Source: Octopus vulgaris
Taxonomy: Eukaryota
Direction: 5' to 3'
Assembly (NCBI GenBank): GCA_951406725.2
Contig: OX597827.1
Coordinates: 38,626,001 to 38,690,000, forward strand
DNA: 64,000 bases
Positions 10,443-40,554 of the stretch are shown here, one piece after another. Positions within the stretch are counted from its first letter, which is position 1. Each line of letters begins with the position of its first letter. Position numbers and translations under genes: made by a program. Below the pieces are notes generated by a model. The model saw only the letters and a list, made by a program, of their open reading frames with translations. It did no database searches and was not told the DNA's origin.

Positions 10443-15343
<4,901 letters not shown>

Positions 15344-15520
15344 CTACAAAATTAGAAAATGGAGAAACATACTTAAATCAATCAAACATCAACCATCAGA
15401 TGATACCCAATCAATACTTTATTACACCATTACATAACAGCAAAGGCATTATACAAAATATATTGTAAATATAATTAGACAAGGAAATAGAAATATAAAA
15501 TATAATATATAATTATATCA

Positions 15521-15634
15521 TATCTGACAGCTGTTTCGGCCGTAAGGACAAGTATGCCTCATTTAACCTATAAGCCATATAAGGCAGGTATAAATGAGAC
15601 ATTAACAAGGATGTCCCACGGCCTCTTCAGAGAA
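15521..15634 (-). ncRNA. Type I hammerhead ribozyme motif with long stem II, in a Penelope-like/retrozyme-like element (~15345-15700)
   Basis: Minus strand reads ucu-CUGAAGA-ggccguggga...uccuuacggcc-GAAA-cagcug-UC-aga; intact core, G-C closing pair, palindromic stem III, GUC site. Confidence 0.8.
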
Positions 15635-15789
15635 TTTAATTTATTATAAGTGTGAAAAAAATTTTTTTATAAATATAAAAATATAAAATATAAAAACGTG
15701 TGCATAGACACTCATAATACTACACATATATATATTCTCATTAATACAATAATACAAAATAAACAAAACAAAATATATCAATATATATA

Positions 15790-16096
15790 TCTTTATATAT
15801 AAAATTGAAGTTGTGTGTGTGAGACTCTGTCTCTTCCGATTTAGATTCCTAACTACTCCCACATTTTGCGGTGCAGCTTAACCAAAAGCGGGTATTTTAT
15901 AGTCGTCAATCATATCGGGCCCTTCTGTGTATTAGCGCGCGTCTACAATGAGTCTACGATTTAAAAAAAAATTTACCATCATTTTTCCGCATTTTTAATG
16001 ATTTTTGCTCGGGTTATATAAGGGAAGTAACTTTCTAAAAATGCTTATATAGTTATTTCCCTTACAAACCTGAGCAACGCCGGGCGATACTGCTAG
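15790..16096 (+). mobile_element. Non-autonomous Helitron
   Basis: A|TC start, subterminal hairpin cctgagcaacgccggg, CTAG|T end, no TSD; CpG-rich relative to flanks. Confidence 0.75.
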
Positions 16097-16310
16097 TATA
16101 TATATATAAAATTAAGCACTAACAACAAAAATGTATAAAAACAAAGTAAACAGAACACAATTAAAAATTCACTTATCAGTTGTCTGCTGGTACCATTGCA
16201 ATTCTGATGTGTAAGACACAGTTGCTATCACCCAGTGGCATTAGCAACCTCCAGAAAGGGCTGCTTGGGGGTAATGCAGGGGAAACAAGATAAAAGATAT
16301 GCAAATTATA

Positions 16311-17540
16311 TTACATCTTCCCATAAATAATGCGTTTTTTTATACTTCTTTTATTTTTCAAAATTAAGATAAACATACTTCTTTTTTAATCTAAAATATA
16401 CTCTTCTGAAATTCACTTGTATGTGATGAAAAATACTCCTCCATTACTGTTCTGACCTCGTCTACAGAATTCATATTTTTTCTGTCCAAATGATTTTGAA
16501 GACTGCAGAGTAAATGATAATCAGATGGGGCAATATCCGGTGAATATGGTAGGTGGGGCATCAATTCCCATTCAAACTGCTCCATTCTTTGGAATATCAT
16601 TCTCGTTGTATGTGGCTGAACATTATCCTGATGGAAGCATATCTTTTATCTTGAAACCGAAGATGGTTGTTTTTCTTCTAGTGCTGACTTAAGCCGCTCA
16701 AGCTGCTTGCAGTAGATCTCCTTTGTTATCGTTTGGTTGGAGTTTAAAAGTTCAAAGTGGACTAAACCTTTCATATCCCACCAAACAGATAACAACACCT
16801 TATGTGGTTGAAGTCCTTTTTTAGTCTGGGGTGTCAGTGTTTCTCCTTTCCCTACCCACTGTCTTCAGCACTTGACATTTTATAGAGAACCCATTTCTTA
16901 TGAGTCACTATTCCATCCAAAAATACTTAATTTGTGAAATGTGACGGCAAAGAAGAGCACATATTCACTCTCTGCATGTGATCAGACTTGGAAAGTTTGT
17001 GAGGAACCCATTGACCCAATTTACTAACTCTTCTGATGGCACACAGTTGTTGATGAATGGTTCAATGACCAAACCCAAGCTTCTCTGCTTGTTCCTCAAT
17101 AGTTACAATGGGATTTTGTTCCACCAGGGTTTGCAGGATGTCCTCATTGAGCTCTACAGATCTTCCAGGACAAGACTCGTCTTCTTGGCTGTAGTTCCCA
17201 GCTCTGAATTTCTGGAATCACTGCTGACATTGGCTTATGCTTATTGTCTGATCCCCATATACTGCGTTAATATTCCTTGCACTTTCCATTGTGTTGTTGC
17301 CTTTATTGAACTCATAAGGCAAAATATGCCGAATATGCTCCTTTGTCACTTCCTTTATAACTTGGAAAAAATAACTGTTAAAATCGAACTGCACTCTTCA
17401 AAACTTGCACTAAGTAATTTTACCTTGTACTTATTCTATCTGCTTTTATAGCAAGTTGATGGGGTGGTTTATCCTGCCCCGCCCTCCAACTTTTAGTTCA
17501 TGCAATTGAAAAAATCAGCATTATTTATGGGATGACCCAA
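16311..17540 (-). mobile_element. Full-length decayed mariner (Tc1/mariner) transposon
   Basis: TIRs ttacatcttcccataaataatgc / gcattatttatgggatgacccaa flanked by TA; minus-strand WVPHKL and HLPYSPDIAPSDY transposase motifs; frame disrupted. Confidence 0.92.
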
Positions 17541-20249
17541 TATATAATTTGTGTGTATGCATTTATGCTTATATATACATAGTATTTATGATTAAGACAG
17601 CAAACAGGGAAACATTAATGTATTGCAACAAGGATGAAACAAAGCAGCATGGGGCAAATTTTACATTAAGACAATGCTGAAGGCTAAGAAAGAAACTGCA
17701 AAATTAGTTGTTTAAAAAATAGTCTTTGGGAGAAATACAAAAAAATGTGTTCTGGAAGACTGGCTACTGAAAACAGGGAGGAGAAATGTATACTAAGAAA
17801 GAAAGGGGATGGAGTTGAGAGAAAGAGGAAGGAGTGAGAAAAGAGGAAAGGAAAACACTTTAGGGTGAGAGAGAAAAAAGGCATGGTAGAGTATATGAGA
17901 AAGAAAGAGTATTTGAGATGGGGAGGTGACTTTATGCCAGGTTTTGAGAGGTAAAAGTATAACATAGGCTAAAGTATTATTAGAAAAGAAGGCCTGAAGC
18001 AGAATCTCTGAATGCTTGTGTGTATGTATACATTTATAATATATATATATAAAGACAGGGTTGTGAAGTTCACTCCTTAACCAAAAGTGTAGCAATGACC
18101 ATGTGGTGAAGTTTGCTTCCCAACTACATGGTTTCAAGTTCAATCCTATTGCATGGTACCTTGGATAAGTCTCTTGTATTTTAACCTGGGGCCAACCACA
18201 GCTTTGTGAGTGGATTTGATTGACAGAAACTGAAAGATGTTTATCGTTTGTGAGTGTTTGTGTGTATTTGTATATATTTAGCCAACTTCCTCTTTTCTAA
18301 CAGTCCCAACCAGGCCCTAGAAAAAGCCATGGTCACTGCCCTTCCTCTGTTGTTTAAGTTGTGTGAAATAAATACAATGACTTGGAGATTAAAATTCTGA
18401 TTTCAGTGTCATGAGTTCAGATGTTACTGTAATCATTATAGTCAGTGTTGCATCTCACACAAAGCTCTGTCGTTTTACCTGACTGAACAAGAAACAAGCC
18501 CTATAGTCAGTGTCTTAGTTACTTTTGTGTCACAACAGTTCAGGCTGATAAAGCAGACCTGTATGTTTGTCCATCAGAGCAATGAGAACTATCTAGTCAT
18601 CCTCAGTGAAGGATGACTGATGACTTGCACAGTGACCTTGTTTAAAGCGAAGAGTTAGACACCATCAACCTCACTCTCTTGTCCATGACCATCTCCATTC
18701 TGGTGGCAAGACCAGGTCAAGATGACTGGAGATAGACAGACACAGTGGTTGACCAAAATGTCTTGCTTGCCTCCGCTTGCTCTCTGCTCTTAGCAATGCA
18801 TTCCTGCATTCACCTTTCTCTCCATTGAATCATTGAAGTTTCTTCTGCAGAGTCTACCTGTTCCAGTCTTCCTAAGCATAGGTAGGCAAACCCTAGCACA
18901 CCAGGAGTTACATACCTGTTGGCTACCCTAGCCTGGTTTAGACCACCATTCAAAGCAGTTTATCAGAGTGTGACTGCAAACAACTACTTGGTCGCCACCT
19001 GGCACCCAACTCTTACCTGTGGCTCCAAAACAGACAGACCACCCCTAAAAGTGCGTTGTGTTCCCCCATCAAAGGTGCTAACCCTCCCTCACCTCTCAGA
19101 GCAGACCTATAGTAATGTTAAACAATTGAAAAAAAAAATGTGCAATCCAAGTAGTTATTGATTTTTCAAATATATTCTGACACTATTTAACTGGAGACCT
19201 CCCTGCATATTTTAAAATCTAGTGGTTACTCATATCAGGTGCACTGTAGCAGTCTGGACATTTTGTAGCCTCTCTATTGCCCAGTTGCCTTCTGTACACA
19301 TGTAGACACATGTCGTAATTAGGACCAGTGGCAAGCAAAGTGAACCTAATCTGAGCCCAACAATCTCGGTACAATATTTAAAAGTTCCTACTTCAGTGTT
19401 AAGTGGTTAGCTGTAGAAAGGATCATAAAGTTGTAAAATTGTTCCATAGGTAGTAGGAGCACTCCGTCGGTTATGACAATGACTTTCCAGCTGATACGAT
19501 CAATGGAACAGCTTGCTCGTGAAGTTAATGTGCAAGTGGCTGAGCACTCCACAGACGTGTATACCCTTAATGTAGTTCTCAGGGAGAGTCAACGTGACAT
19601 AGAGGCTGGCCCTTTGAAATACAGGTACTACTCATTTTTGCCAGCTGAGTGGGCTGGAGCAACATGAAATAAAGTGTCTTGCTCAAGGACACGGTGTGCC
19701 GCTGGGAATTGAACTTATGATCATGAGCCACATACCCTAACCATAGGTAAGTAAGGAGCCACAAACAGCCACTATATGGTTGCTTGACCTGCAAGAAATA
19801 GCAGCTAAATCTCCTAAGTCATACCTTAATGCCTTAAAATAACTCACATTGAACAGTGGAGTCCTAAATATGCAAAATACTGAAAGGTCACACTAAAGTG
19901 AACGTTTTTGAACCAAGGTCTACTTGGTCGAAGCAAACATTATGCTAGATAGCAGCAGAAACAGTTTTTTATCATCATTTAACATCTGTTTTCCATGCTG
20001 ACATAGGTTGGACTATCTACACACAAAATAAATCATCCAATGCATACTGGTATGGAAAAATAGTTGTAAAGAATGAAAAATAAATGGAAATGGATAAAAA
20101 AAATTTTAGTTAATAAAAAAACTTTTGGTTAATCAATTTGTAATTTCAAATTGCTAAAGGAAGTGGGAGGGGGGGGAATAAAATTTGCCTAGAAATAAAA
20201 AAAATGGAAAATTTGAATTGAAATGAATCAATCAAAATAAAAATCAAAT

Positions 20250-20798
20250 TCGATGACTGGCGCCCATGCTGGCAGGGTGCAAAGAGCACCATACGAGCGT
20301 GATCATTGACAGAGCAGCTAACTGGCTTCCATGCCAGTGGCATTTAAAAGGCACCATTCGAGCGTGATCGTTACCAGCATCACCTTACTGGCACTTGTGC
20401 CCATGCTAGTAGGGTGCCAAGAGCACCATCCGAGTGTGATCGTTGCCAGAGCAGCCAACTGGCTTCCATGCCAGTGGCACGTAAAAGAGCACCATTCAAG
20501 CGTGATCGTTACCAACATCGCCTTACTGGCACCTGTGCTGGTGGCATGTGTAAAAGGATTCGAGCGAGGTCGTTGCCAGTACCGCCTGACTGGCCCCCGT
20601 GCCGGTGGCATGTAAAAAGCACCCACTACACTCTCGGAGTGGTTGACATTAGGAAGGGCATCCAGCTGTAGAAACTCTGCCAAATCAAGATTGGAGACTG
20701 GTGCATCTATCTGGTTCGCCAGCCCTCAGTCAAAATCGTCCAACCCATGCTAGCATGGGAAGCAGACGTTAAACGATGATGATGATGATGATGATGAT
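20250..20798 (+). mobile_element. 3' end fragment of RTE-type LINE with ~122-bp internal tandem repeats
   Basis: Terminal part resembles reverse complement of 58061-58250 (aggaagggcatccagc...caacccatgctagcatgg...cgttaaacgatgatgat); repeated gcaccattcgagcgtgatcgttacca units. Confidence 0.8.
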
Positions 20799-20959
20799 CT
20801 TATGTTTCAGTTAAAACCTGACTTGGTTTTTAAAGATTTTAAAAACTTGTTTTAACAACTTTTAAAAATTGGTGTAGGAAAACTTTAGAAATCAATTTTT
20901 AAAATCTTCAAAAACTAAATTTTTTTTAAAAATCACTAAAAATTAGCATAAAATATTTA

Positions 20960-21221
20960 CTGTTCAATATTTAAGAGATGAGGAATTATGTACATTATTT
21001 ACATTCAATGGATATTTGTCCTCATCTTGTTTGTCGTTAACACAATGTTTTGGCTGATATACCCTCCAGCCTTCATCAGGTATCTTGGGGAAATTTGGAA
21101 CCTGGGTTCTCATTCGAAATTTCCCCAAGACACCTGAAGAAGGCTGGAGGGTATATCAGCTGAAACGTTGTGTTAACAACAAACAAGATGAGGACAAATA
21201 TCCATCGAATGTAAATAATGT
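20960..21221. mobile_element. Inverted (foldback) Penelope-like terminal repeat insertion with TSD
   Basis: Arms 20991-21100 / 21113-21222; 12-bp direct repeat ataaaatattta at 20948-20959 and 21222-21233; ~30-nt unpaired extension; each arm has a hammerhead motif. Confidence 0.75.
21129..21174 (+). ncRNA. Minimal type I hammerhead ribozyme motif (extra A after A9)
   Basis: gacac-CUGAAGA-A-ggcug-gaggguauau-cagcu-GAAA-cg-UU-guguu; stem I GACAC/GUGUU; mutated mirror copy on minus strand at 21039-21084. Confidence 0.7.
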
Positions 21222-22254
21222 ATAAAATATTTAATTTTGTAATGGAAAATATGTTTGCTCTTCCCTATTTTGTATAAATTATCATTCACTACTATTCACA
21301 GGCCAAATCTTAAATGGTATTAAATAAACTTGCTGGTTTAGTATTACTTTCCAAGTATAATGGGTTCAAACTCAGGTCAGAAACAGTACACTACTTCAAT
21401 GTGCCTCTCTCACACAACAGCTCAATGTAACTTTTGCACAAACAGCTTTTTCCTTCCTTCCTTGCTTTCTTTCTTCCATCCTAATGGTTCCCTAGATCAT
21501 TGTAGTGGCATAGAATATTCACTAGGCACAGATATTACTTGTATTTTCCTCTGTAGAGGAAGCTAAAAGCCAACTTGAGTGAATGGATTTATGTTGGTAG
21601 AAGTTATCACAGGGCTTTCTCACTTCACAGATCTTCTGTTCAACTCTAAAGTAGTTCCATTTGGAACCAAAAAATACAATTGGTATTTTCTGCAATTCAC
21701 ATTGCCTCAGTGAACTTGACATAACTCAAGAGAAAATAGTTTCAAATAAGATATTCCTCAACAAAAGATAGATTAGTAAATAAAACTGTTTCCCACTGAT
21801 AAGGGTATTGGAATTTTGAGTTATTCTACTCTTGCTTCAATTTACCTAACTTGGGTGAGTAAGGCTAAAGTAAACAGTCTAAAATGTACTGATGTCCTAT
21901 CTAGGGGAAATTTTAATTTCATCTCATCTGCTTAATGTTATGGATCTTGAACTAATCAAAAGTTCTGATGAGCTCCTTGGTGTTCAGGATACATTTAATC
22001 TGTTTTATTTACTATTGTCAAAGAAGCTAGGTGGTTATGTGGTGATCTTTCAGTCGAGGAGCTGCCTTGAGAAACCGAGTTACAAGTTCAAATTTTGTTC
22101 GAACCATAATGTCACATGATTCGTTAAAAGGTAGTAAAAGGGACCCTCTGTTTTAGGGAGAAAAACTATGAAGTTCATGCTCCTCCTCTTCCTTTTTTCT
22201 TTTTATTAAAAGAAATATATATATATTAGCAACAGAGACAGTATTAATACAGAG

Positions 22255-22503
22255 AGGTAATATTTACCCCCACTTATAACAAACTATACTGCAGCAGATA
22301 CCATGAGAGAAACTCTCATATTGGTTTTTGGTGCAAAATTCACTCTTGTTTACATCACTGGTGGAGATATAAATCCCTGCTGCCTCCAACATTGAGATAA
22401 ACAAGAGTGCATTTTTACACCAAAAGCCAATATGAGAGTTTCTCTCATGGTATCTACCACAGTATAGTTTGTTCCACATTTCAATGGGGATAAATATTAC
22501 CTG
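22255..22503. repeat. Long inverted repeat (~110-bp arms), MITE-like foldback
   Basis: aggtaatatttacccc...cactcttgtttacatca is the imperfect reverse complement of tgagataaacaagagtg...ggggataaatattacct. Confidence 0.85.
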
Positions 22504-24906
22504 TCTCTTGTCTCCCATCCCTTTGAAGATTATTCGTATAAGAGAATTGAAGTGGCTTCAACCAGTTTTGAAATTACATTCTGGTTTTTGGCTTGTTCTC
22601 ATAAGATTCCCTCTTGCTCAGCAGTGCTCATCGGGTGTTGTGATTGTGTATCCCTAATTCAGCATTGATCAACTAGTCCTATGGCAATCAGGTCGTCAAT
22701 CAACAACAAGGAAATCATCCACCACAGAGCTGCTGGTGGTGTTAATGTGTAACCTTTAGTCAACTCTGATCAAGATTTACAACTAAATAGCTGTTGTAAA
22801 GCGGTCTTTTATCACTTCTGTATCTATCTTTTGATGACAGTTGTTTCTCTGACAGATATTGTTATATTCTGAAGTCCTCAACAAGATGGTTCTTTCAGGC
22901 ACTGTACAACCCCACCACCACCATCATACAGAGTTATTATCCTCAAAAGGTTGGATTGTTATAACATCCACTCAGTATCACAGTATGATTGACTATATCA
23001 GCACAGACACGACTATCAACACAGTCTACGCGTACTCTTGACCTTCTTCTGTCGACCAGCTACTGGTCTATTTATTATGGCTGGATACTACCATTTTTAC
23101 CAGGAGTGTACAGTTTCACTATACAACAGTAGCATCAAGAATCCTTTGTTCCAGAAATACCAGAGTGTAAATTCCATCATGCAGTAGGCATACCACACTC
23201 CCTCCACTTTCCAATTTATTTTTGTACACCTGTTGTTGTTGTTGTTGTTTAACCCCAAATAGTGAAGATGCTTGGTGCAGTGGTTAGAGCACCAGGTTTA
23301 CAATTATGAGGTTGTGGGTTCAATTCCTGGTTCAAGTTGTATGTTGTATTCTTGAGGAAAATACTTTCATGTTGCTCCAGTTCACTCAGCTGTAGAAATG
23401 AGTTGCAACATCACTGGGGCCAATTTGTACCGGCCTTTGCCTTTCCCTTGGATAACATCAGTGGTGTGGAGAGGGAATGCTGGAATATATGGGCAACTGC
23501 TGGTCTTCCATAAATGACTTTGCCCAGACTTGAGCCTCAGAGGGGAACTTTCTGTGTGCAATCCCATGGTCATTCTGAGTGAAAGGGGTCTTTATCCTGA
23601 CCTGTTTTTTATATCAAGGACTGAATTATCCAATGCTCCCCCACCTTTTTCTAAATAAAGAAATTCAGTAGGGTGATGTTTGAAGAAAATTTTGCTATTT
23701 TTAGCAGGCTGGTTGACCATATAAAGGCTCCATAGCAATGGCCACAGTGGAAGTGAAAAAAATACACAGAGTATGACACTTGTTGCTCCTCTACATTATT
23801 CATGGTCTGCATCCCAGCACACTGTTTTAAACTGATTGTGTGTGTGTGTGTGAGAGGGAGAGAGAGAGGGGAGAGAGACATGTTCATTTGGACTGTTTGA
23901 GTTGGTGGTTTATTGAGATAGCATTTTAGGTTGCTATTACAGAACTGTTCTGAGGGTGATGAACTCTCTTGCATTCAAATTATTCTGTCAAATGTAATGC
24001 TTATTTATTCACATTGATTTGAATTAGTCATGCATTACTTTGTAGCTTAGATGTGATTATTTCTACAATAATTTTATAGGGTAAGTATGCGAGTTCAGAT
24101 CTGACCAGTTTGAACATAAAGCAGGTAGAATATTTTGGCCAGATGTGGTCAGTTTAAATACTAAGGGTTAAACCTGCTGTGGCAAGGACTGTAAAGGTTA
24201 GAAATTGCTGTGGTAACAAATTGTGTGAATTTTGTATGTCCAAAATAATCTTTCCCAGTCTGTTTGAGTGTTGGCTGTTGAGTACAATGATAGGTTGTAT
24301 TTGATGATGTTTGGTAGGTGCTAATTTAAATCGCTTTATGTTTTGGATGTGGTGGGCAGAGAGATACCCAAGTTTCTAAATGAACGATGGCAGTGTAATT
24401 ACACTTGTGCAGCTACATCTCAAACGTTTGGTTGAAGTAACTATGATAGCAGGTCTATATGAGGCCATTTGTTTTCTCAGGTATGGGAGGGCAAAAAGGG
24501 AGGTTCATGTAGTGATAAGTTAAATTGACTGACATTCTATCTATTACTTTTTCGATTTTTTTTTATGCCAACTGACCAATAGGCATCGTGTAGTTATTTA
24601 ATTTAGGGTGAGGGAAGAAGCAAGTTAGCTGTGAGAAATTTCTAAGTTGAGTTGCAGTTAATAAAATTATAATTTTTCCATACTATTTTTATATACACAC
24701 TAAATACTTTAAAAATAAGGTTTACAAAATTAACTCTATAATATTAACCCCTTCTTTCCTTGATAATCTTCTATTTTATTTTATATCCATTCAGGATATT
24801 TCTTAGCTCTTATTTAACAGCTAGGTGCCTTTTGTAGCTAACAATTCAACCATATGTTAGGGATTGGAATTCTTTTTTTTTCTTTTTTTTTTTTATATTT
24901 GTCAAG

Positions 24907-24924
24907 GAAACTGAAGGAAGCAAG
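24907..24924 (+). CDS. Candidate 18-nt microexon (ETEGSK) of SPPL2-like gene
   Basis: Long U tract, gtcaag|GAAACTGAAGGAAGCAAG|gtaatg; phase 0-0, in frame between the PAL exon and the last exon. Confidence 0.55.
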
Positions 24925-25157
24925 GTAATGCTATACTGTAACACAGCTTTCTAAACCCACATACAAAAAAGAATCCAGCTACTGACACACTAACACAAAA
25001 CCCTCAGGTTGTTAATACTCTGTAACACAAGACGTCTACCAGCTGCTACATTGTAACACGAAATTTCCACTCACTGATACATTGTAACACAAATATTTAG
25101 CCACTGCTGCTGCTTGTATTTTGTGATTTAATTTTTTTTTTCATTTCTCTCTTACAG

Positions 25158-25295
25158 AATTTTCTAAAAGCCTCACCTCCAGTTGAAGATAGATCTCTCT
25201 CCCAGGAGACCCTCCCAGATGATGTTGAAACACCACCCATTTCTACAAAGCCTGACCAGTCTAAAAGAAATGAGAACGACCACTTACTAAATTAG
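25158..25295 (+). CDS. SPPL2: SPPL2-like terminal coding exon (cytosolic tail)
   Basis: Strong acceptor ttctctcttacag|NFLKASPPVEDRSLSQETLPDDVETPPISTKPDQSKRNENDHLLN*; phase 0 fits; low-conservation tail, so homology support is weak. Confidence 0.7.
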   Translation, partial: NFLKASPPVEDRSLSQETLPDDVETPPISTKPDQSKRNENDHLLN

Positions 25296-25495
25296 TTGCC
25301 TAATGAATATTGGGATGCAAGAAAATCACTGACTTTTACACCATCTTTCTGGCATTACATCATGCCAAGCCTTTTGGTTTGTGAATATCCGTGTTTCTCC
25401 CTGTGTGTGAGTGTGTGTGTATGTACACAGATGTGTGTGTGTGTTTAGTGTGTACACTCAATTTGAAATAAGAGTAAATGTATAATGCATAAATT

Positions 25496-25541
<46 letters not shown>

Positions 25542-26479
25542 CAGGAATTGTAACAAATGTTCCATTCCATCTTAGCAAAGTGTGACTGCCAAAACAAAAG
25601 ATAAACCAACTGAGGAGTAGGCTGAGAATGGCAGAGTTGATATCAATTTAGGCTACAGAATCTCAGGTATTAAGTTATCCTTTTTACTAAATATTTTAGG
25701 CAGGAGGCCCTTTATTCTGCCTTGTTTGAGTTCTGTTGCTTCTTGAAGGAAGGGGTACCAGAATCACAAGAATGTCACCTTTATTATAAACTAGCATTCT
25801 ATCCAGGAACAGATTTAGCTCTCATTTCCTTAGTGCCATGAAACTAAAGCTGAGCACTGGCTAAACCTGCGAGATCCTTACATGTTCTACTGGTATCCAT
25901 AGCTCATTGCATTGTCTCTTGACATATTAGCTTCACATATCCCACTCCTCTCTCCATGACATCCCTTATGATAATAAAATCCAAGTTAAGCTTTTAGGTG
26001 GTCATTAAGTGTAGCTACTGTGAGGAAAATATCTGAGTGTGTCTGAGGAGCTCAGTACAAGAGAGAGCTTTCTATGTCTCATGACAACTAAATTTATTAC
26101 CATCTACAAACTCTCTTTAGATTCTTTTACTAGTGTTGTCAGTGCGGTCATTTGACCATTTTCCTCGGATTCCAGATTTTATCCTTATCTCCATGTTAAA
26201 ATTCTACTAATGAATTATTACTTCCTTTTACTAGCTCAGTGGACACCAGATCATTTGAGACTTGACCAGACACAACACAATGCCTGTTGTGCAGGTTATA
26301 AACCATCAACTGTTCAGATAACAGTTTGACATCATATCAGCTGAAACCAGCAAAATAACTTGCCTGTATTTGGTAAAATTTCTTTGCATTCTCTCTGAAT
26401 CCTGTTTTGGTTAACTTTCCCTTTTCCTCCTCCAAGGGCTGATAAAATAATCATTCATTTCGGACTTCATTAAATATAC

Positions 26480-28245: not shown

Positions 28246-28591
28246 ACTGTTACTTTGGCAACAAGAAGAATGGTTTCCATTATAACTCTTGTTTTTTTGG
28301 GTTTTTTTTTTTTTACTTTCATAACCTGGTTTACAATATATCAAAAAGTATTGAAACTTGTTTTACTCCTGCATGTATTTTTAAAATATTTCGTTATCAT
28401 ATAAAAGAAGTTTAACAAACTGTACAAACAGAAAATCCCAATTCGTCTGTATAACAAAGACTTATTAAAAATGTTTAATCAAATTGAAGAAAACAAATTG
28501 TTTATTCTCATTGTTATTGTTATCATCATTGTTTGTTTATTATAGCACATTCTTCTTCATACATGGCCATTTCCCTCACTGATAATTGGAT

Positions 28592-28962
28592 GGATGGAAG
28601 CACTCCGTCAGTTACGACGACGAGGGTTCCGGTTGATCTGAATCAACAGAACAGCCTGCTCGTGAAATTATGTGTAAGTGGCTGAGCACTCCACAGACAC
28701 GTGTACCCTTAACGTAGTTCTCGGGGATATTCAGCGTGACATAGAGAGTGACAAGGCTGGCCCTTTGAAATATAGGTACAACAGAAACAGGAAGTAAGAG
28801 TGAGAGAAAGTTGTGGTGAAAGAGTACAGCAGGGATCACCACCATCCCCTGCCGGAGCCTCGTGGTGCTTTAGGTGTTTTCGCTCAATAAACACTCACAA
28901 CGACCGGTCTGGGAATCAAAACCGCGAGTCCGCTGCCCTAACCACTGGGCCATTGCGCCTCC
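28592..28962 (-). mobile_element. tRNA-derived SINE (family C)
   Basis: Minus-strand head ggaggcgcaatggcccagtggttagggcagcggactcgcg (A-box-like); related copies at ~34870-35100 -, ~38930-39226 -, ~37606-37890 +. Confidence 0.75.
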
Positions 28963-30359
28963 TTCACTGATAATTGTTCCAACACTAACACACATCAATG
29001 AGGTAGGTATGTATGTATGTCTGTATGTATCATCATCATCATTCAAATAACATTGGATAATGTAGTTTAAGAGACATTGCCTAGGTCAGGAGTTCTCAAC
29101 CATTTTTTAACTATAGACCCCTTTGATTACTATTTTACTTTTGTGGACCCCCATTGCCATTCAATGTTTCAAAACTAGTTTTATAGGAACCTCTTTCAAA
29201 ATTCCTATACATGAATTTGTGTAGATTCAACCATGTAAAATGTTAGAGAAAGAAACCTCGTTTCTTGTGCAATACATACAAATACATCTAAAGCAAAATT
29301 TTTCAGGGGTCCCTTAAAATACTATCGTGGGTCCCCAGTTTACTATTTTATTGTGTGGGCACCCACTCCATATTTTATATGGACCTTCAGGGGCCATATG
29401 GACCCCGGTTGAGAACTGGCCACAGCTGCAATGTCTATGGCTATAGGTTTGCTTACTCAGGGACAAATTAGAGTTAAATAATAATAATAATAATAATAAT
29501 GTTAAAGCTGGCAGGATCTTTAGTGCATTAGACAACATGCTTAGTAACATTTCTCCTGGCTCTTTATGATATAAGTTCAAATATTGTTGAAGTCATCCTT
29601 TCAGGGTTGATAAAATAAAGTACCAGTCAAATACTGAGGGGTGATGTAAGCTGGCATTGTGCCAAAATAGTGTGTGTGTTTGTTATTTTAATGTCCACTT
29701 CTCCATGCATGCATGGATCAGATAGTTTGAGACAGATTTTCTATACATAGATGCCCTTCTGGTTGTTGCCGACCCTCACCTATTTCCAAGCAAGGTAATA
29801 TTTCCATGGCCAGAGAGGTTTTTACTGAGGACTGAGATGAACAACATCATATGTAATGCCTAGATAAGGGTGCATGCGCATGCACACACACATAAATGAT
29901 GATGATTGTCCACTTGTGACTGAAGAAGACCTTCATTGGCCATTACCCATGCAAAATGCCAAGAATGTGTGTGCATGAGGTTATTGCACCAACAATTGGC
30001 TTCACCAGGGTTCACATCCACACTTTCCAAGCTTGACACGGCACCCTCCAAATCAACTAGTCATTGGATAGTCACCTCACTACACATTGCACAACTTAAC
30101 ATTTTAGGTCCAATAAGGCTTACACAGATCCTTTCCATCTTGCTGACATAAGCCAGGGCAAGATATCCAGTGCCAATATAGGTCAGATTCAGGAATGTGA
30201 AACTGTCATGGTCTTCAGCACAAGCAAAAGATCCCCAAAATGTTTAATGCCATTCCCTGCATTTCTGGTTTTCTGTCAGTGACCTTTCCCTGCAGACATG
30301 CTTTAACAAAAGTTGAGGAGTGCATCACTCTGAGTGGTCTTCCAGCACACAGGACACCA

Positions 30360-30645
30360 ACTCAGAATTTCTGACAAGTCCATGCTATTATTAGATAGTT
30401 GTTGAACCTGCACTCGGTTCAATGTCCTTTTGACAGGTATTGCTTTTAATCCTGCTGGGTTTCTAGCAACACTCCTCACCAAGCAAGCCTAGTGGGACTG
30501 CCACTCAGAATTTCTGACAAGTCCATGCTATTATTAGATAGTTGTTGAACCTGCACTCGGTTCAATGTCCTTTTGACAGGTATTGCTTTTAATCCTGCTG
30601 GGTTTCTAGCAACACTCCTCACCAAGCAAGCCTAGTGGAACTGCC
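30360..30645. repeat. Near-perfect 143-bp tandem duplication
   Basis: actcagaatttctgacaagtcc...cctagtgg(g/a)actgcc repeated at 30360 and 30503; one mismatch seen. Confidence 0.95.
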
Positions 30646-30670
30646 AGTTCAGTTGCTGAAGACCCAACCA

Positions 30671-30701
<31 letters not shown>

Positions 30702-30702
30702 A

Positions 30703-30739
<37 letters not shown>

Positions 30740-31037
30740 TAAATTAAATTAAATTAAATTAGAGATAAAACCACTATTAGGCAAATCAAACAGTGAAAAA
30801 CATAAGCCAATACAAAATTAATTTAAAAATATAAAAGTTAAAAATTAAAAAATTATTAAAATAATTTAAACTTATAAATTTTAAATATATACATACAAAT
30901 ATATATATATATATATGTATGTATATTTTTATATTTATATATTATTTTGTTTAATAATTAATTTATTTTTTATTTATTTATTTTTTTTATATAAATATCA
31001 AAAGTATTAAAAGTTTAATAAAAGATAAAGAGTAAAA

Positions 31038-31130
31038 CACTATGATCGTTTCATGGCTGTACCTATTTGAATAACTAATTTAAATTCAGTTAATAATTTG
31101 AGTTTTGGTTACAGTCAATCTTCAGGTTAA
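31038..31130 (-). ncRNA. Degenerate hammerhead ribozyme motif in AT-rich Penelope-like remnant (~30760-31200)
   Basis: Minus strand: CUGAAGA-uugacugua...uacagccau-GAAA-cgauca-UA; stem II/III mismatches. Confidence 0.45.
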
Positions 31131-34100
31131 TTGAAATATTTTTTAAAATAATCAGAAATATTTAAACAATATTTTTAAGATATAAATAATATAATAATTT
31201 TACTTATAATAAACTCTATTATCAAACTAGAAACTTAAAACTTAATAATTATGATTATATCAAAATCGATTATAATGTTAAATATTAATTTTAATTTTTA
31301 AGGTAAGAAACCCACCGATAATCTAATGTCAGTAATAGTCTATATCTAATTACATAAATATTAAAAAAAAACAAAAAACTATTATATACAAAAAATTATC
31401 AATGGATATATATAAATGTATATGAATATTATAATTAAGATCTAAAATAATCTCTATAAATAAATATATATGCACATATAATAAAGACCTATTAAATTAA
31501 TATTTTATATTTAAAGATGAAATATCTAAATTCAAAAATACAAACAAACGAACTTTCGGAAATCTTATTTAAAATACTTATAGAAATAATCAATTCGTAG
31601 TTATATAGTATCGAATAAATACTATAAATATATTTATCAATGGCAAATATCAATTTAAAAAGACAATAACTAAGTTATGCTATTAAGTTAGACATGGCCT
31701 GGACCAATCTTTGGTCGAAACATATCTAAGTTTATCTAATTTTAATTATAAGAAATTAAAAACTACAATTAATATATGTATATACATAAATCTAACTTTA
31801 GACAACTTGTAATCTTGCTATCAAACAACATATCTATCGCTAAGTGATATCTTACGAATAAACTTAAATTTAATATCTAATAATTATATAGAAAATTACG
31901 ATAATTAGATCATTACATAAACAACAATATTTATCATAAGAAAAATATTATTACACCAAAGACTTATAAATATTAAAATTTACAATTTAAAGATGTTAAA
32001 TATAAATAGATACTTATCTTAGCGAGGTTTTGTAATATATATATATAGATAAAACTTACTTGGAAATGGATGCGTGGCGTTCCATCATATAATAGCAAAA
32101 TAATAAATAAAAAATATGCATATATACATACATATATGTACGTACCTACATCTATATGTATATAGACATGCATATATGGGTACAGGACACCAAAAAAACA
32201 TCGAACACAATGAGAAACAAAACCAAGGAAACAGACATTTTTTTAAACAATGGAAAAACAGAGTAAAAGACATACAACACAAGGAATATTCCCCTTCTTC
32301 AGCCGCCTCTGTTTCATCTACCCCGTGTTTCGAAGGTAAAGGCGAGACACAACTTTGTGGAAACAGTCCTTCCCGCAAAGCAAATTAAATAAAATTTGAG
32401 ATTTTTTGCAGAAGGGTAAAAGTGCCCGACATCACAAAATGCATCTGAATAAACATTGCCGGACAGCAAACAGAGACTCGGACATTGCTTAGAAAATAAT
32501 CTTCATTTTTAACCTCGTATATTGTACACACTAGGGATTTTGACCTTTAAATTTTTGGGGAAAAATGCGGATTATACTCAAGGATTTATGGTAATTTAAA
32601 ATAATATGAATAAATAAGCATTACTTTTGACAGAAAAATCTGAATGCTAGAGGGTTAAAGGGACATCAAAACTGGCCTTATCATAGTTGTTTTGTTCATG
32701 ATTGTATAGTGCCCAAAAGAAATCAGTCTCTTATATAAGGGGACATAAAATCTTGATTACCTTCAAAAAGCAGCACTTATGTACAATCACTACATGAATA
32801 ATTTATAAGTAGACTTTTCACAGTCTCTACAAATTCTAGACTTTACTATCTCTCATTTTACGTCTGCTTATCAATGATGTCATGGGATTCGAAAAATCTT
32901 TTTTTTTAGGCAATGTTTTTTATGGCCAGATACCATCGATGGTACATATCCATTTAGTTGTCTCTTATGTACAAAGATCCAGTATATCTATTCTAAAAAC
33001 TGAGATAATGGAAGGGTCCAGGGGTCAAGAACACCAGAGGTCTCCACTGCCACAAAGTGACCAATACTTTGACAGTTTTCTTTTCTCAGCCTGACAAGCA
33101 GCAGAACCTGGCCAGGCAGCGGAACACACCAAGCTGCCTACTCTTCAACAGGTTTATGGTCAAGTGGAGACCTTTGGCATTCTCAGCCCCCAGACCATGT
33201 CCCTGCTTGGCTGTTCTAGCACATATTCCCCGCTATCCTCATGGAAAATGCCTTTTCTATTTTGTCTGCTGAGACCATGAGGCAGGAAATTGAGAGAATG
33301 TAAGAATTCCGTAGCTTGGGTTGGACCAGAACCTCAAGTCTCTTTGCCCTATACACTGTGCAGTGATAAGGTAATTGATTACAAGTACATGAAAGAGCTA
33401 AGGAAGATTTAACTAATCTTTCACGGTTGAGAAACTTGTATTAAATTCTTTTAGCTTGTATTAAATCCAGATGAGACTAATAATTGTACTGACAAGTAAG
33501 GGAAGTCATAGATATGTGATATTTAGTTTAGGAACTCATTGCCATATTTTTAGAACACAGCTTATATAGATTTTAATGGATGCAAGTATGGCTGTGTAGT
33601 TAAAAAGCTTGACAAATAACCAAGCATTTCTGAGTCTGATTTCACTGCACATCACCTTGAGCCACTATCCTCCACCACAGCTTAAAGCTAATCAATATCC
33701 TGCAATAAAAAAAATCTAAATAATGGAAACTGTGTAGAAGCCCATATTATGGTCATCAAGATTTTGCATATACTGATATTTCTATAACATAACCAAAGTT
33801 GTTCATCAAAGGCTCAGGTTTTCCTTTAGTTTTGAAAAGCTGTTAACATGCAATTTTTTTTATATATTTTGTTTTTGTCTCACACAACAAAACTTAAAAA
33901 CGTATGTATGGTTAAACAGCTGCTACACACCACACACAAGCATTCTTAATCTTATCTGAAAAGAGGTCAACAAACTACCAATCATCACAAGAACATTAAT
34001 GTTTTTTTTTTTTTTCTGTTTATCTTTATTGTTTTTGTTCTTTTGAACAACCAAGCTGTGCGCCACAAAACTCACTCCTTATTCTTACTCAGAAAAATTC

Positions 34101-35097
34101 ACAAGCTAATACGTGAAACTACCTAGTAGCTTGACCTGCTAAGAAACAGAAACTAAACTTCTCTCAACCCATTATTCTACTGGCTTAAGAGAAAAAAACT
34201 CATTTGGATAATATGATCATACATATATTCTATATAATGGAATATATGGCGTAGGAGTGGCTGTGTGGTAAGTAGCTTGCTTACGAACCACATGGTTCCG
34301 GGGACGTAAACACACCAGCATCGGTTGTCAAGTGATGTTGGGGGGACAAACACAGATACACAAACATATATACACACATATACATATATACAACAGGCTT
34401 CTTTCAGTTTCCATCTACCAAATCCATTCACAAGGCTTTGGTTGGCCCGAGGCTATAATAGAAGACACTTGCCCAAGGTGCCATGGTAAAGAGGAAGAAT
34501 GGCTTTGATAGCAGAGCCCTGAGAATCATCAAGAACATCAAATAGTGCCATCCCATTTCCAACAAAGAACTGTGGGCATGCATACATCATCCTGCAGCCT
34601 CCCACCTCATAGCTATCTGCTGCATGTGCTGGTACAGATTGTCTTCCACCTCCTGTAAGATTATCCTACCTGGACCTTACACTCACTCAATGCAGCAACT
34701 GCAGGCTACAAAAGACCCAGTGGCAGTCATTGCACCAGATGACTGGATTCAATTAAGGAAGTTTTCCAGAGGTTCATCCCTTGGGGGATGCAGAGGAGCT
34801 GGCATAAGACCACTAGCGATGGGGAGCAACTCTACGCACAATGATGTCATATATATATATATATATATATCACGTGATCAAGTGACCGACCAGACCATCA
34901 GATGTTGCTACACGTCGCTGGTCACAATGCGTTCACATTGTTTTAGCCTTCGAATGACGCCACCCTGCTGGCTAAGCGAGCAGGCCAACAGAAGAAAGAG
35001 TGGTGAAAGAGTACAGCAGGGATCACCACACCCTGCCAGAGCCTCTGGGAATCGAAACCGCGAGTCCACTGCCCTAACCACTGGGCCATTGCGCCTC

Positions 35098-35153
<56 letters not shown>

Positions 35154-35639
35154 AAAGCAAGTTGTCTGTGTCAAGTTGCTGTCTACACCCGTTAACGAAT
35201 TTTCGTGAAACTTTGCAAACATGCTAAAGTAACATCCAGTTTGTTACTAAGCTCATTGAAGTTTAATAAAAATTTATAATTGATGGTTAGGGATCCACAT
35301 ATATAACCACTATATTTTATTTTAACAGCCAAGGGAAATAACCCATTCATTTTTCTACATCATTTGGTATAAAACACGTTGAGTATGTTTATTTGTTAGT
35401 ATTTGAACTGTTAGAATTATTTTCACAATTTACCCTGTACAACCCTTAAACAAGTAAATATTATTTTCCTAAACAATAGATCCACTTATTTTGGTTAGTG
35501 ATTTATTCACGAATATACCATGAATGACGATGTCTTTCATGTCACTTCAGCCAATTGACAAGCATTGCATGACGAACAGTTCTGCTTTTGGAGAAATGCA
35601 CTGTTATCACAAACGTCACACCCTGTTTACATGTAGGAA

Positions 35640-37440
35640 CACCTTCTTAAAATCTATCTGTACATCTTGAAAATGGCCAGTGTTTATATTTCACAGAAGA
35701 CAATGCTCAGAACATAGTTCTGAATCACCCAGTAACCTCTTTGACAGCTTTCTTCAAATTATGCCAAAGTGATCTGTTTGCCCAAACACTGTTGTATGTA
35801 GAGATCCCCTTGTACTATACCTGGGCACACAATAGATGGAATAGGCACAAGCAAAGAGCACACAGTGAGGGCTAGGAAGAAGATGCTGTTTTCAGAAGTG
35901 GGGCCATCGGGTGGGTGCACACTGTACATCCTAATCAGCAGGAGTGCTTCTTTCTGCATCTACTGCTGCACACTGTCAGAGGTCCTACATCATTCACAGA
36001 CTTTCAAAGACACACAGAGGAAGTCTTCATGGCCTACAGAGAAGCCTGCACTCAACATGGACTACTAGAGGACGATGCTCACTGGGACCAGACACTAGAG
36101 GAGTCATCAGAGCACTAAGTCAACTGTGCCACCTATTTTCTATTATGTTGATGACATGTGGCTTGTGTGAACCTCTCAAGCTTTGGGTGACCCACAAAAC
36201 CAGCATGGCAGAGGACATCCTACAAAGGATTCAAAGGCAAACCTCAGCGGAAATTGCCACGTTCAATAACGCCATTTACAATGGGGCATTACTTGACCTG
36301 GACACCTGAGTGCAAGCTATGGGAAGTCAAGGCAATTCCACATTTGGTCTGCTCAACCAGAGCAGGCAGCAAACAATCTCACAATTGAGCACCTGCAAGA
36401 AATCAGCTATGACATCAAAGAAATGACGGTGTATATAGCTGATAAAGGACACAAAATGATGGAGGACCAACTGGGTGTTTATAACACCATAATTTCAAGC
36501 ATTGAAAATGAAAGAGGTCTTTTCTTTCTGGCTGCTCCAGGTGGAACTGAAAAAACATTTGTCATCAACCTTCTGGCTAAACTGTGCCAAATGAAATACA
36601 CTGCTGTAGCAGTGGTATCAAGTGGAATAGCTGCAACTCTGCTAAGTGGTGGCCACACAGGTCATGTTTCAAACTCCCTTTGGACCTGTCCAAGAAAGAG
36701 AAGGCAAACTGCAACATTAGTTGTGGTTCTATAAAAAGCAAACTTCTGGGTGAATGCAGGTTGATCATCTGGGATGAAGCAACAATGAGACATAGGGTTT
36801 CCTTTGAAGCTCTTGACATGACCCTTCAGGGTCTGAGACACAACACTGGGCTCATGGGAGGTGCCACAGTCTTGCTTGCAAGAGACTTTCGACAACCCTT
36901 CCCATGGTTCCAAAGAGGACAAGAGCTGATGAAGTAAATGCCAACATAAAGTCGTCCTACTTATGGAGCAGTGTGCAAAAGCTAAGACTCACAACCAACA
37001 TGAGAGTGCAGAACCTTTTCAAAGCAACTGTTGGACATCGGTAATGGCACTTCAGATGGTGAGAAGGATGGCTGGGTAAGCTTGCCTTTTGGACATATGG
37101 TATCTGATTTAAAGGAACTAATGAATAAAGTGTTTCCTAACCCAAGGAATCAGTTTACAGACCACAACTGGCTGAAAACTCATGCCATTTTAGCTCCAGA
37201 GAATGTGGTAGTTAATGATTTGAACTTTAAATTTCTAGAACAGTTGCCAGTTGAGCATCACATCTACAATTCCATTAATGATGTACTCAACATTGATGAA
37301 GCTGTGAATTATCCAGTTGAATTCTTGAATAGTCTAACACAACCTGGCCTCCCGCTTCACAACTTGCACCTCAAGATTGGGGCACCAGTTATGTTGCTTC
37401 AAAACTTCGATCCACCAAAGGTTTGCAATGACTTGAGGCT
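35640..37440 (+). pseudogene. Decayed Helitron RepHel PIF1-like helicase region
   Basis: Frameshifted segments FFLAAPGGTEKTF (Walker A), VSSGIAATLLSGG, LIIWDEATM (Walker B), YPVEFLNSLTQPGLPLHNLHLKIGAPVMLLQNFDPP. Confidence 0.9.
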
Positions 37441-38271
37441 GAGCCACACGTTGCACACAATATTTGCTGGATCAGTAGGTGCAGGAGTTATTCAATTCTA
37501 AAAATTGGAACAACAACAACCACAACAAGAACAAAAAAAGATACTGGCTAAATATCTTATTGTTATGCTTTCACATGTATTAACTTGATAATATATCTAT
37601 TTTAGGTGGAGGCACATGGCCCAGTGGTTAGAGCAGCAGACTCACGGTCGAGGGATCTCAGACTGGGCGATGTGTGTGTTTATGAGTGAAACACCTAAGC
37701 TCCAAGTGGCTCTGGCAGAAGGTAATGGTGAACTTTTGCTGACTCTTTTGCCACAACTTTCTCTCACTCTTCCCTCCTGCATTTTGCAGCTCACCTGCAA
37801 CGGACTGGTGTCCCGTCCAGGTGGGGAGCCTATATGCTAAGGAAACTGGAAAACCAGCCTTTATGAGACAGGCATGGCTCGAGAAGGAACAAATATATCT
37901 ATTTCAGACTATATTTGGTTTGGCAGAAGCAGCTACTGCTGAGGAGAATATCCAGCCTGAAATGTATTACCTTTCATATTATTCTGATGGTATTGTTATA
38001 CCAAACTTTGGGAAGCAGCTGACAGGTAAATCACTTATACCTTTAAAGAAGTAATTTTTTTGTTTATATAAATAATTTGTTCTAATTTCTAGTTGTGTAA
38101 ACTAAATCAGGTCAACCACTGCTGACTTAGACTAAACAAGTATTGAAGCCTTGACCTTCCATTTTTGCATATTTCTGACTACAATGTTTATATTTGTGTT
38201 ATAAAATATAAATTGTTGGGTTTGATGATTGTTGTTAAAAGTCAATGAACTGTCCTCTTTCTTGTTACCTT

Positions 38272-38450
38272 TCTCTCTCTCTTGTCTCTCCCCTCTCTCT
38301 CTCATCTCTCCCCTCTCTTTCTCTCATCTCTCCCCTCACTCTCTCTCGTCTCTCCCCTCTCTCTCTCACTCTCCCCTCTCTCTCTCTCGTCTCCCCTCTC
38401 TCTTTCACTATTCTCCCTCTCTTGCTTCCTCTACCTCTTTCTCTTTCTCT
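38272..38450. repeat. CT-rich low-complexity tract
   Basis: Degenerate (ct)n / tctcccctctc units. Confidence 0.9.
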
Positions 38451-39228
38451 GGCCAGGTAACCATGTACCTCCTCTGTAGCAAGACACCTGTTTCTGCCTC
38501 TCTGTCTCTCTCTCACACTCTAACTTTTCCTCATCTGGCACAAGATCACCTCCTCCATTGCCCCCCCTCTTCTCTCAAAATTCTTTGTCTTATAAGTTAC
38601 TTGTTGACCCTGCTGGTGCTGGTGCTGCATAAAAAGATCTAATCCACACTGTGAAGTGGTTGGCATTTGAAAGGGCATCCAGCTGTAAAAACCATGCCAA
38701 AACTGACCTTGCTTGTGCTGGTGCCTTGTAAAAAGCCAATCTATGAAGTGTCCACTTTATAGGGTGGTTGGTGTTAAGAAGGGCATCCAACCATAAAAAC
38801 CATGTTGAAACAGACACAGCAGCCTGGTGTAGTCTTCTACATGGCTGGCTCCTGTCAAACCATCCAACCCATGCCAGCAGGGAAGGTGGACATTAAATGA
38901 TGATGATGAGTACATGCATATGCACATATATTACGTGATCACGTGACTGACCAGGCTATCAGATGTTGCTACACATCACTGGTCACAATGTGCTTCACAT
39001 TGTTTTAGCCTTCAAATGACGTCACCCCGCTGGCTAAGCGAGCAGGCCAATAGAAGAAAGAGTGAGAGAAAGTTGCGACGAAAGAGTATAGCAGGGATCG
39101 CCACCACCTCATGGAACTTTAGATGTTTACGCTCAATAATCACTCACAATGCCTGGTCTGGGAATCGAAACCACAATCCTACATCTATGAGTCCGCTGCC
39201 CTAACCACTGGGCCATTGTGCCTCCATA

Positions 39229-39302
<74 letters not shown>

Positions 39303-39394
39303 AACACACACACACATTCAAAATGTGACCGCGTGTGTACTGTTGGTGATTTTATTCCTCTGTCTTCCCTTCTTTGGATCTTTCCTTCTCCTAT

Positions 39395-39429
39395 GTTTCT
39401 GACGTAGAGCTCCGCTCGAAACGTTAAAC
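39395..39429 (+). ncRNA. Minimal hammerhead ribozyme motif in short element (~39315-39525) between (TA)n arrays
   Basis: guuu-CUGACG(U)A-gagc-ucc-gcuc-GAAA-cg-UU-aaac; stems I and II perfect, one core deviation. Confidence 0.6.
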
Positions 39430-39520
39430 CCTCCTTCTTTCCTGAGCGTCCAATAATACTATATTTGTTCCACGTCCTCGCGTTGTTGTGTTTTCTCTTT
39501 GTGTTTTCATGTTTGGATTA

Positions 39521-39571
<51 letters not shown>

Positions 39572-40554
39572 ATTTATGAATATATATTTAGATCCATTGA
39601 AATTTGTTTGGGATATATTTTACCTGTACAAAGGTCAAATTTACTTCAAACTTGCCATGGAGATCCTTTCTTGCTTGAGGGAACAGATGATCAAAAAATA
39701 CCAACCGTCATTTCAAGGTACCATCTGGCAGAAGTAACGAATGCAGTTTGAGTGTTTTGCCTATCATCAGCACCATGTACTACAAGAGATATCACCCTTA
39801 AATGACTTCAGAAACCATTTTTTTGCCTTATAGTAATTCAGTATCCAAACGTGAACTGATTATGTGCAATGCCACCCTTGGCATGAACAAAATATTGCAG
39901 TAGCCATGCAAAAGCAGTGTTGTTAATAAATAAACATTTAGATCAGGAAAAGACTTTTTACCAAAGTCATTTCAGGATTGTCTCTCTTGCCTGTGAATGT
40001 CATGGGCACTGTCCCTGTATATCGACTTCTTTTTTTACTAACATCTATCTCACTTCACTATAGAGTCCACTTGTTTCACTGATTTATCACTATGTACTCC
40101 AACTGATACGTTACTTCGCCCATCATTGGAGCTCAACTATATAATGGAGATTTCGGTAGCATAGCTGATTTGAGAGAGAGAGAGAAGAAGAAGAACCAAA
40201 AATAGTACATGATGATTGGAACTTTATTGAATTCCCAAAAATTTTTTTTACTTGAAATCTCAAAACTATGACATAAATGCATGGTTAATTCAAATACTGA
40301 CTAAATAATCAGTACATATGACATAATATTCTGAATACTGAAGGTATATTAACTTTATGAAATATGTTCATGCTATTAACCCAATTGAGTTATTTCCCTT
40401 AGCTCAGGTTTTTTTCCATATTTTTTAATGGTATATTTAAGACTGCATTAACTCATATGAGTTGAGAGAGAGAGAGAGAGGGAGATGTAACTGCAATTTC
40501 TAGCCAGTATAACCCACCCAGTCGTTATAACATAGAAGATATTTTGTTTATTTC

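Follow-up and report, generated by a model that had tools for sequence, protein, structure and literature searches.

Four hammerhead motifs in 64 kb of the Octopus vulgaris genome as probable 3' ends of four Penelope-like element families

The stretch of DNA considered here—64 kb of the 2.8-Gb genome of Octopus vulgaris (contig OX597827.1, positions 38,626,001 to 38,690,000), hereafter the window—carries four dissimilar hammerhead ribozyme motifs, some of them next to (TA)n arrays, and thus raises the question of what elements such motifs belong to and whether these elements choose TA repeats or create them. An earlier note described the motifs as parts of non-coding elements of a dense and diverse system of Penelope-like elements (PLEs) or retrozymes that targets or seeds TA microsatellites; the present analysis partly confirms that observation and partly supports its interpretation. 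The four motifs do lie at the positions given for them, and they are very probably hammerheads located in the terminal repeats at the 3' ends of four autonomous PLE families—two of the Hydra clade (A and C), one Neptune-like (D) and one Penelope/Poseidon-like (B)—left as 5'-truncated insertions, likely made by each family's own reverse transcriptase (RT)-endonuclease via target-primed reverse transcription. The coordinates are summarized in Table 1.

Table 1 Features of the window related to the four hammerhead-bearing elements (L numbers denote loci of the respective families; positions are those of the window)
Feature	Position	Strand	Remark
(TA)n/(TG)n array, 4.9 kb	10481..15343	.	insertion target of element A; length outlier among family-A junctions
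Element A, 5'-truncated 3' end (3' untranslated region/pseudo-long terminal repeat) of a Hydra-clade PLE	15345..15788	-	94% to 3' end of ORF-bearing L143
Hammerhead of A, intact type I	15523..15633	-	86-nt rod-like stem II domain; stem III CAGCUG palindrome; GUC site
Left 12-bp target-site duplication of element B	20948..20959	+	
Element B, inverted arm with optional tail of about 34 nt	20960..21115	-	hammerhead 21039-21084
Element B, forward arm without tail	21113..21221	+	intact minimal hammerhead 21129-21174; stem III ACGU; GUU site
Right copy of 12-bp target-site duplication of element B	21222..21233	+	
Element C, 5'-truncated 3' untranslated region/pseudo-long terminal repeat of a second Hydra-clade PLE	30740..32020	-	ends at (TA)n/(TG)n run
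Hammerhead of C	31033..31130	-	about 65-nt stem II domain; family stem III CGAUCG; GUA site
Element D, 5'-truncated 3' end of a Neptune-like PLE	39315..39525	+	88% to 3' end of ORF-bearing L390
Minimal hammerhead of D	39394..39430	+	stem III ACGU; GUU site

The evidence comes mainly from other copies of the four families, the DNA searches having supplied the best-scoring 30 for each. In these copies the 3' end is constant and the 5' end varies, upstream pieces can be inverted, a tail may or may not be present, and open reading frames (ORFs) for an RT and a GIY-YIG endonuclease lie upstream; the insertions have TA junctions in A, C and D and target-site duplications of 7-13 bp in B. Since all four motifs lie downstream of such ORFs in copies of their families, the Penelope-related character proposed earlier is borne out, and the partner autonomous PLEs, a search for which had been suggested, were found for all four families by walking upstream in other copies. 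The description as non-coding elements does not survive at the family level, all four being 3' ends of coding elements; what had been taken for retrozymes or separate mini-elements appear to be truncated ends of autonomous PLEs.

Concerning families A and C, the 30 best copies of each combine a fixed 3' end with a ladder of 5' ends and short inversions, and the longer ones reach through a 2.6-kb AT-rich untranslated region (UTR) into the upstream RT and GIY-YIG ORF. When loci were selected solely by the A endonuclease, the hammerhead end was found downstream in 10 of 11, at a distance of about 2.6 kb from the stop. The A ORF exhibits the motifs SDKT (L143), YRDD, VYIGAT, CSLCINE and CIH and a CxCX5C linker (CNCRNRNKC in L142), CCHH being absent; the C ORFs in L120-L122 have YRDD, IYIGST, a CTCRNKTK linker, CYLC and CRH, with SDKT in L122 and the RxxWK motif, as RIKWK, in L120 and L122. 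The RTs of the two families are 51% identical over 176 residues, direct terminal repeats (pseudo-LTRs) are present in the C loci L121 and L122, C being the only one of the four families for which a full-length copy was seen, and the proteins of both match the printed alignment of Hydra-1_Obim by eye. Judged by the DKT, the CxCX5C linker, the absence of CCHH and the CxxC/CxH near conserved E and N, A and C appear to be members of the Hydra clade. It should be pointed out that the second linker Cys is replaced by Phe or Tyr in most A copies (L139-L149; Cys only in L142 among those printed), and that family A ends at (TA)n despite this replacement. In the window, element C is 87% identical over 1360 nt to the full-length copy L121, and element A has its predicted cut between 15526 and 15525. 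The sequence aaattaga, previously seen as a shared start of both elements, is indeed present in A and C; it is, however, their 3' end, the element-sense form being TCTAATTT. Just past the TA run at the 3' end of C, a near-perfect 143-bp tandem duplication occupies 30360-30646.

Element D is surrounded by (TA)n at 39232-39302 and 39526-39587. The copies of its family run through a (CA)-rich 3' UTR of about 1.9 kb into the ORF, and three of the four long loci (L390-L392) contain an RT, a linker zinc finger and a GIY-YIG domain, the last with a Pfam E-value of 6e-4, i.e. below the cut-off. The linker CSRSRCNTC, found in L390 and L391, fits the CX2-5CxxC of Neptune; from motifs only, the family may thus be called Neptune-like, Nematis being also compatible in an assignment made without a tree. 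An interpretation of D as a short interspersed element (SINE) of 210 nt is ruled out by the extension of the copies into the RT/GIY-YIG ORF.

The complete B unit, about 270 nt long, opens with a tRNA-like head of 72 nt, which is followed by (AAT)n, by a frame that starts with ATG and spans the hammerhead, and by a tail. Of 30 loci selected on the endonuclease, 27 have this unit behind the stop of a Penelope/Poseidon-type endonuclease, joined at one and the same point, with an RT upstream (RVT_1, Pfam E=3e-11); the ORF has no linker zinc finger, and the insertions lie, with target duplications, outside microsatellites. These features make B a putative Penelope/Poseidon-like PLE, of which the forward arm in the window is the 3' part of the pseudo-LTR, the tRNA-like head being lost. 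The 21-kb palindrome comprises two truncated B arms with their 3' ends outward and the tail on one side. One-sided tails were found in 19 of 22 B palindromes, not counting the duplicate locus L039. After exclusion of the three loci that have either two tails or no tail, target duplications of 7-13 bp were present in 14 of 19, compared with at least 7 bp in 5% of mismatched pairs. Variable junctions and the extension of the unit into the ORF rule out a fixed palindrome resembling a miniature inverted-repeat transposable element. An identity with the octopus SINE OR2, compared by description, is unlikely, OR2 being listed as a CORE-SINE and B having no body between head and (AAT)n. In L182, L187, L196 and L202, the B tail is connected to another SINE or long interspersed element family within the (AAT)n end of the latter, which suggests microhomology joining at (AAT)n.

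As to the state of the ribozymes, a descriptor (CUGANGA, stem II of at least 4 bp with at most 110 nt enclosed, GAAA, short stem III, UH, stem I of at least 3 bp) recognized an intact core at 15526-15630(-) in A and at 21134-21169(+) in B; the D motif, at 39399-39425(+), was matched with a relaxed core only, and the C motif failed. C, D under the strict form and the left B arm are missed because the window copies carry core or stem III substitutions relative to their family majorities, namely G>A in stem III at plus-strand position 31043, A9>U in the core at 39405 and GAAA>AAAA at 21051. Only the 15.5-kb hammerhead and one of the 21-kb hammerheads are therefore intact within the window. In the families at large the core is intact in 26/30 copies of A, 23/30 of C, 14/30 of D (23/30 if C3-C4 is allowed) and, by the strict pattern, 8/30 of B. 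From the short palindromic stem III, cleavage as dimers in tandem transcripts may be predicted. In the computed fold of element A, stem II forms a long rod (z=-5.2), and about 12 of the 16 intact motifs of a random genomic sample also enclose 42-79 nt there. A CTCCATT motif occurs 40-170 nt after many such long-stem-II hammerheads, often just ahead of a TA run (L303, L313, L331, L332, L338, L345, L346, L355 and element A). Rfam reported no hammerhead family in the window at E<=5, and its scan of 12 loci and one B unit returned no hammerhead or tRNA family.

The sample just mentioned consisted of 60 evenly spaced 10-kb stretches (600 kb), and chance expectation was taken from local shuffles, 150 for the sample and 600 for the window. 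Motif density clearly exceeds it, with 16 intact motifs in the sample against 0.27 and two in the window against 0.03. One motif per 37 kb extrapolates to about 75,000 genome-wide and to 1.7 per 64 kb, so that the two intact motifs of the window (P(>=2)=0.51) are nothing special: the idea of a dense, diverse system holds for the genome, not for this locus in particular. The B arm is matched 10 times in the same 600 kb and D 9 times, and therefore about one of each per window is normal. A repeat annotation of O. vulgaris gives PLEs as 6.83% of the genome and 190 families.

Attachment to (TA)n, scored as (TA)3 within 25 nt of the element 3' end (background 7.3%), was found in 27/30 copies of A, the other three carrying a 170-nt tail that ends in TA, in 10/30 copies of C directly and 24/30 allowing a 75-nt tail (within 140 nt), and in 26/30 and 27/28 copies of D (53/58), but in 0/26 and 0/15 copies of B (0/41). 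The earlier claim of TA attachment is thus right for A, C and D, whereas the 21-kb family has no TA link; the three PLE families possessing a linker zinc finger are found in (TA)n, and the fourth, which lacks it, is not. For the 16 random motifs, with (TA)5 within 250 nt as the measure (background 17.6%), the enrichment predicted at the termini was seen on the 3' side (10/16, P=8e-5) but not on the 5' side (4/16, P=0.31).

The head of the B unit deserves separate attention. All four heads compared with 35 tRNAs of this genome score 58-61, the best of 200 shuffles reaching 46-52, with tRNA-Arg(TCG) or Cys as the best match, and at tRNA spacing they contain A and B boxes that conform to the consensus. 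By alignment to tRNAs, the head is a tRNA-derived A/B-box module, although ARAGORN called no tRNA in 16 B loci and Rfam likewise none for the head. Of 30 copies taken in order of position and containing the start of the head (L367 and L368 seem to duplicate each other), 10 extend into the ORF, and in the other 20 the 5' end falls no more than about 2 nt from position -7, 17 of these 20 having a 2-23-nt fold-back around the 12-nt palindrome TGCCC-AC-GGGCA. Within the last 1.7 kb of the B ORF, at its 3' end, the sense strand contains only four TTTT runs, each private to one copy, against 31.8 expected from base composition in 15.8 kb from 25 copies (these are not independent, P being about 0.02 for one element); AAAA is in excess on the same strand, and the ORFs of A, C and D carry 6-26 TTTT runs. 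A codon-tile shuffle is uninformative for T runs because it keeps TTT triplets. The depletion is compatible with transcription of B by RNA polymerase III (Pol III). In three RNA-seq runs of one study B is deeply covered, with equal depth on both strands, a doubling of depth at the head and, in these fragmented cDNA libraries, no start pile-up; the pattern fits read-through of genomic copies and is silent on Pol III. None of the listed indexed sequencing runs containing B was recorded as RNA.

Several other readings have to be weighed against the one given above. That the motifs are chance matches in AT-rich sequence might be argued from the silence of Rfam and from two window copies that fold no better than shuffles; given the excess over shuffles and the fact that each motif is a conserved part of a repeat family, it is vanishingly improbable. 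Non-autonomous retrozymes or mini-elements, whose tandem units yield circular RNA and which borrow PLE enzymes, would agree with most copies being short and non-coding and with the derivation of retrozymes from PLE repeats, and yet the four sites have no head-to-tail arrays and the 5' ends form a continuous ladder into the RT/endonuclease ORFs, which leaves this reading very little probability. As for the elements seeding (TA)n during insertion and driving expansions such as the 4.9-kb array, their 3' ends do finish TA-rich and the longest array of the window abuts element A. However, 22/30 D copies have TA at the truncated 5' junction, too, three D copies are flanked left and right by (TATG)n or (TACA)n—so that the repeat precedes the insertion—and family B inserts without TA. 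The TA/TG/CA runs after the 27 TA-junction copies of A have a median of 64 nt, only that of the window reaching the 1.5-kb flank limit; the 4.9-kb array is therefore not a family-A trait, and nothing ties the elements to it. Of the two alternatives of targeting or seeding, it is thus targeting that stands, seeding being quite unlikely, and the suggestion that the elements explain TA expansions finds no backing. Against the assignment to four autonomous PLE families weigh the lack of any full-length B copy with a 5' repeat in 27 loci (longest 1.63 kb upstream), the absence of Pfam matches for the A and C proteins, clades assigned from diagnostic motifs instead of a tree, the length of A and C of about 5.5 kb, roughly twice that of published Hydra elements (<3 kb, a tendency and not diagnostic), and tails of ~170 nt (A) and ~75 nt (C) exceeding the published 30-40 nt; moreover, the loci from DNA searches favour long, young copies because the best-scoring 30 were taken.

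For family B in particular, an independent tRNA SINE of the Sm-alpha type, moved in trans by a PLE, would account for copies of ~270 nt with head, (AAT)n and hammerhead outnumbering the ORF-linked ones 2 to 1 (1015 short against 359 ORF-linked by exact-pattern counts), but the unit stands at one fixed junction after the endonuclease stop and its ATG-led frame spans hammerhead and tail as in the anole Poseidon repeat, which makes such a SINE unlikely. A much closer contender, with a chance only slightly short of even, is that the start hot spot arises from cDNA folding back on TGCCC-AC-GGGCA, the box being a captured SINE relic and transcription being by Pol II. The fold-backs in 17 of the 20 head-start copies, the RNA-seq with its equally deep strands and no start pile-up, and the failure of ARAGORN and Rfam to call a tRNA speak for it; the consensus boxes at tRNA spacing and the near absence of TTTT speak against it, and a Pol III start at -7 would itself yield a fold-back end. 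In the Pol III alternative, the A/B-box module heading the terminal repeat upstream of the ATG would act as a promoter, and a start at the head would explain why most copies begin there; whether this explains the hot spot, versus cDNA snap-back alone, we put at about even odds. The most far-reaching proposal is tentative, and we rate it somewhat less probable than its negation: B would be a coding Penelope with a captured tRNA promoter, transcribed by Pol III through a terminator-free ORF and shedding tens of thousands of SINE-like solo repeats, thereby representing a still-living transitional form between autonomous PLEs and hammerhead SINEs of the Sm-alpha type, alongside cephalopod Hydra PLEs with hammerheads of 50-86-nt stem II that Rfam misses. 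The literature search returned no PLE with a tRNA or Pol III promoter and no PLE-mobilised tRNA SINE, only reviews and schistosome elements; Repbase, Dfam, subscription papers (e.g. Ohshima and Okada 1994) and bioRxiv supplements lay outside that search and may already hold these families.

Returning to the reading of the four elements as truncated autonomous PLEs, published PLE biochemistry suggests how they may arise. The endonuclease would cut both strands and the RT would start at one of two internal sites, a choice proposed as the reason for the optional tail; the joining of two cDNAs could then produce palindromes such as 20960-21221. Families A, C and D may be guided to pre-existing TA microsatellites by their linker zinc finger, which reads CxCX5C in Hydra and CX4CxxC in D; B has no such finger.

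Much of this has precedents, the accessible parts of the cited sources being the basis of the comparison. The combination of hammerheads with TA targeting in PLEs, including an octopus Hydra family, was described by Craig et al. (2021; PMC8557442), with (TA)n insertion for 26/27 Hydra families, canonical hammerheads with short stem II, and a definition of Hydra (section 11) by the change DKG -> DKT, the RWK motif, a CxCX5C linker, no CCHH, and CxxC and CxH around conserved E and N, the length being generally <3 kb; the linker hypothesis, inversions and 30-40-bp tails are published for PLEs as well. Families A and C resemble Hydra-1_Obim of Octopus bimaculoides in the C-terminal GIY-YIG without CCHH, DKT/RxxWK, CxCX5C, 3' hammerhead and (TA)n, and differ from published Hydra in the size of about 5.5 kb with a 2.6-kb AT-rich 3' UTR vs <3 kb, in Asn-rich ORF insertions, in a stem II of 65-86 nt vs the short hairpins of File S2, and in tails of 75-170 nt (PMC8557442). 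Family D shares with Neptune the CX2-5CxxC linker, a GIY-YIG with a Cys/His motif and a microsatellite bias, but has a (CA)-rich 3' UTR of about 1.9 kb, and its membership is from motifs only (PMC8557442).

Frangieh et al. (2024; PMC11167929) describe, for Poseidon_Ac of the green anole, a hammerhead that extends over the beginning of the ORF and a tail flanked by two sites at which the RT starts. Family B is like it, and like Penelope/Poseidon in general, in having no linker finger, a minimal hammerhead overlapping the ORF start, an optional tail and inversions; unlike it, B has a repeat headed by a tRNA-derived A/B-box plus (AAT)n and an ORF nearly without TTTT, and the word tRNA is absent from the accessible text of that paper. 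Minimal PLE hammerheads (Cervera and de la Pena 2014, PMC4209133) are of type I with palindromic stem III, mostly single and from truncated PLEs, and form opposite-strand pairs 100-700 bp apart; the window motifs share the type, the stem III and the truncated-PLE origin, although stem II is much longer in A, C and about 12/16 of the random motifs. The schistosome SINEs Sm-alpha and Sj-alpha (PMC2770079, PMC6765202) have a tRNA-derived Pol III-type promoter followed by a hammerhead, to which the tRNA-derived head of B and its hammerhead may correspond, but Sm-alpha is non-coding and tandem whereas B forms the terminal repeat in a PLE that codes for protein. Type I PLE-related hammerheads are also shared with animal non-LTR retrozymes (bioRxiv 10.64898/2026.07.22.740005), which are defined by tandem non-coding units that the four elements do not have.

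Some observations concern other parts of the window. At 32050-32510 (-) a fifth repeat end, absent from the earlier note, finishes at a TA run and has, at about 32280-32335, a motif with CCUUC-GAAA ahead of CUGAAGA-AGGG; both blocks are kept in six other copies (75-83% identity). Fold-back elements with 60-nt arms lie at 22278-22473 (92% complementary) and 57803-57919. A broken coding sequence at 36000-37450 (+) has, by eye, helicase-like motifs similar to those of Helitron/PIF1 helicases, and the degenerate coding-like stretches at 16400-17400 resemble mariner/Tc1 transposase remnants, again by eye. Elsewhere, at L245, seven tRNA-Cys-like genes, two with altered anticodons, cluster in 3 kb.

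Based on the above, the finding is real and mostly known biology: hammerhead retroelements at TA repeats have been published, and the window offers a side-by-side confirmation of the pairing between linker finger and (TA)n. The variants met here are the stem II domains of 50-86 nt, the 2.6-kb 3' UTRs and the tRNA-derived A/B-box head in a Poseidon terminal repeat, and it is the long stem II variants and the possible Pol III promoter that carry the interest. Hammerheads with long stem II missed by Rfam imply that ribozyme counts are far too low in such genomes, and a coding retrotransposon transcribed by Pol III, if true, would be an unusual case and would open a path leading from PLEs to hammerhead SINEs.

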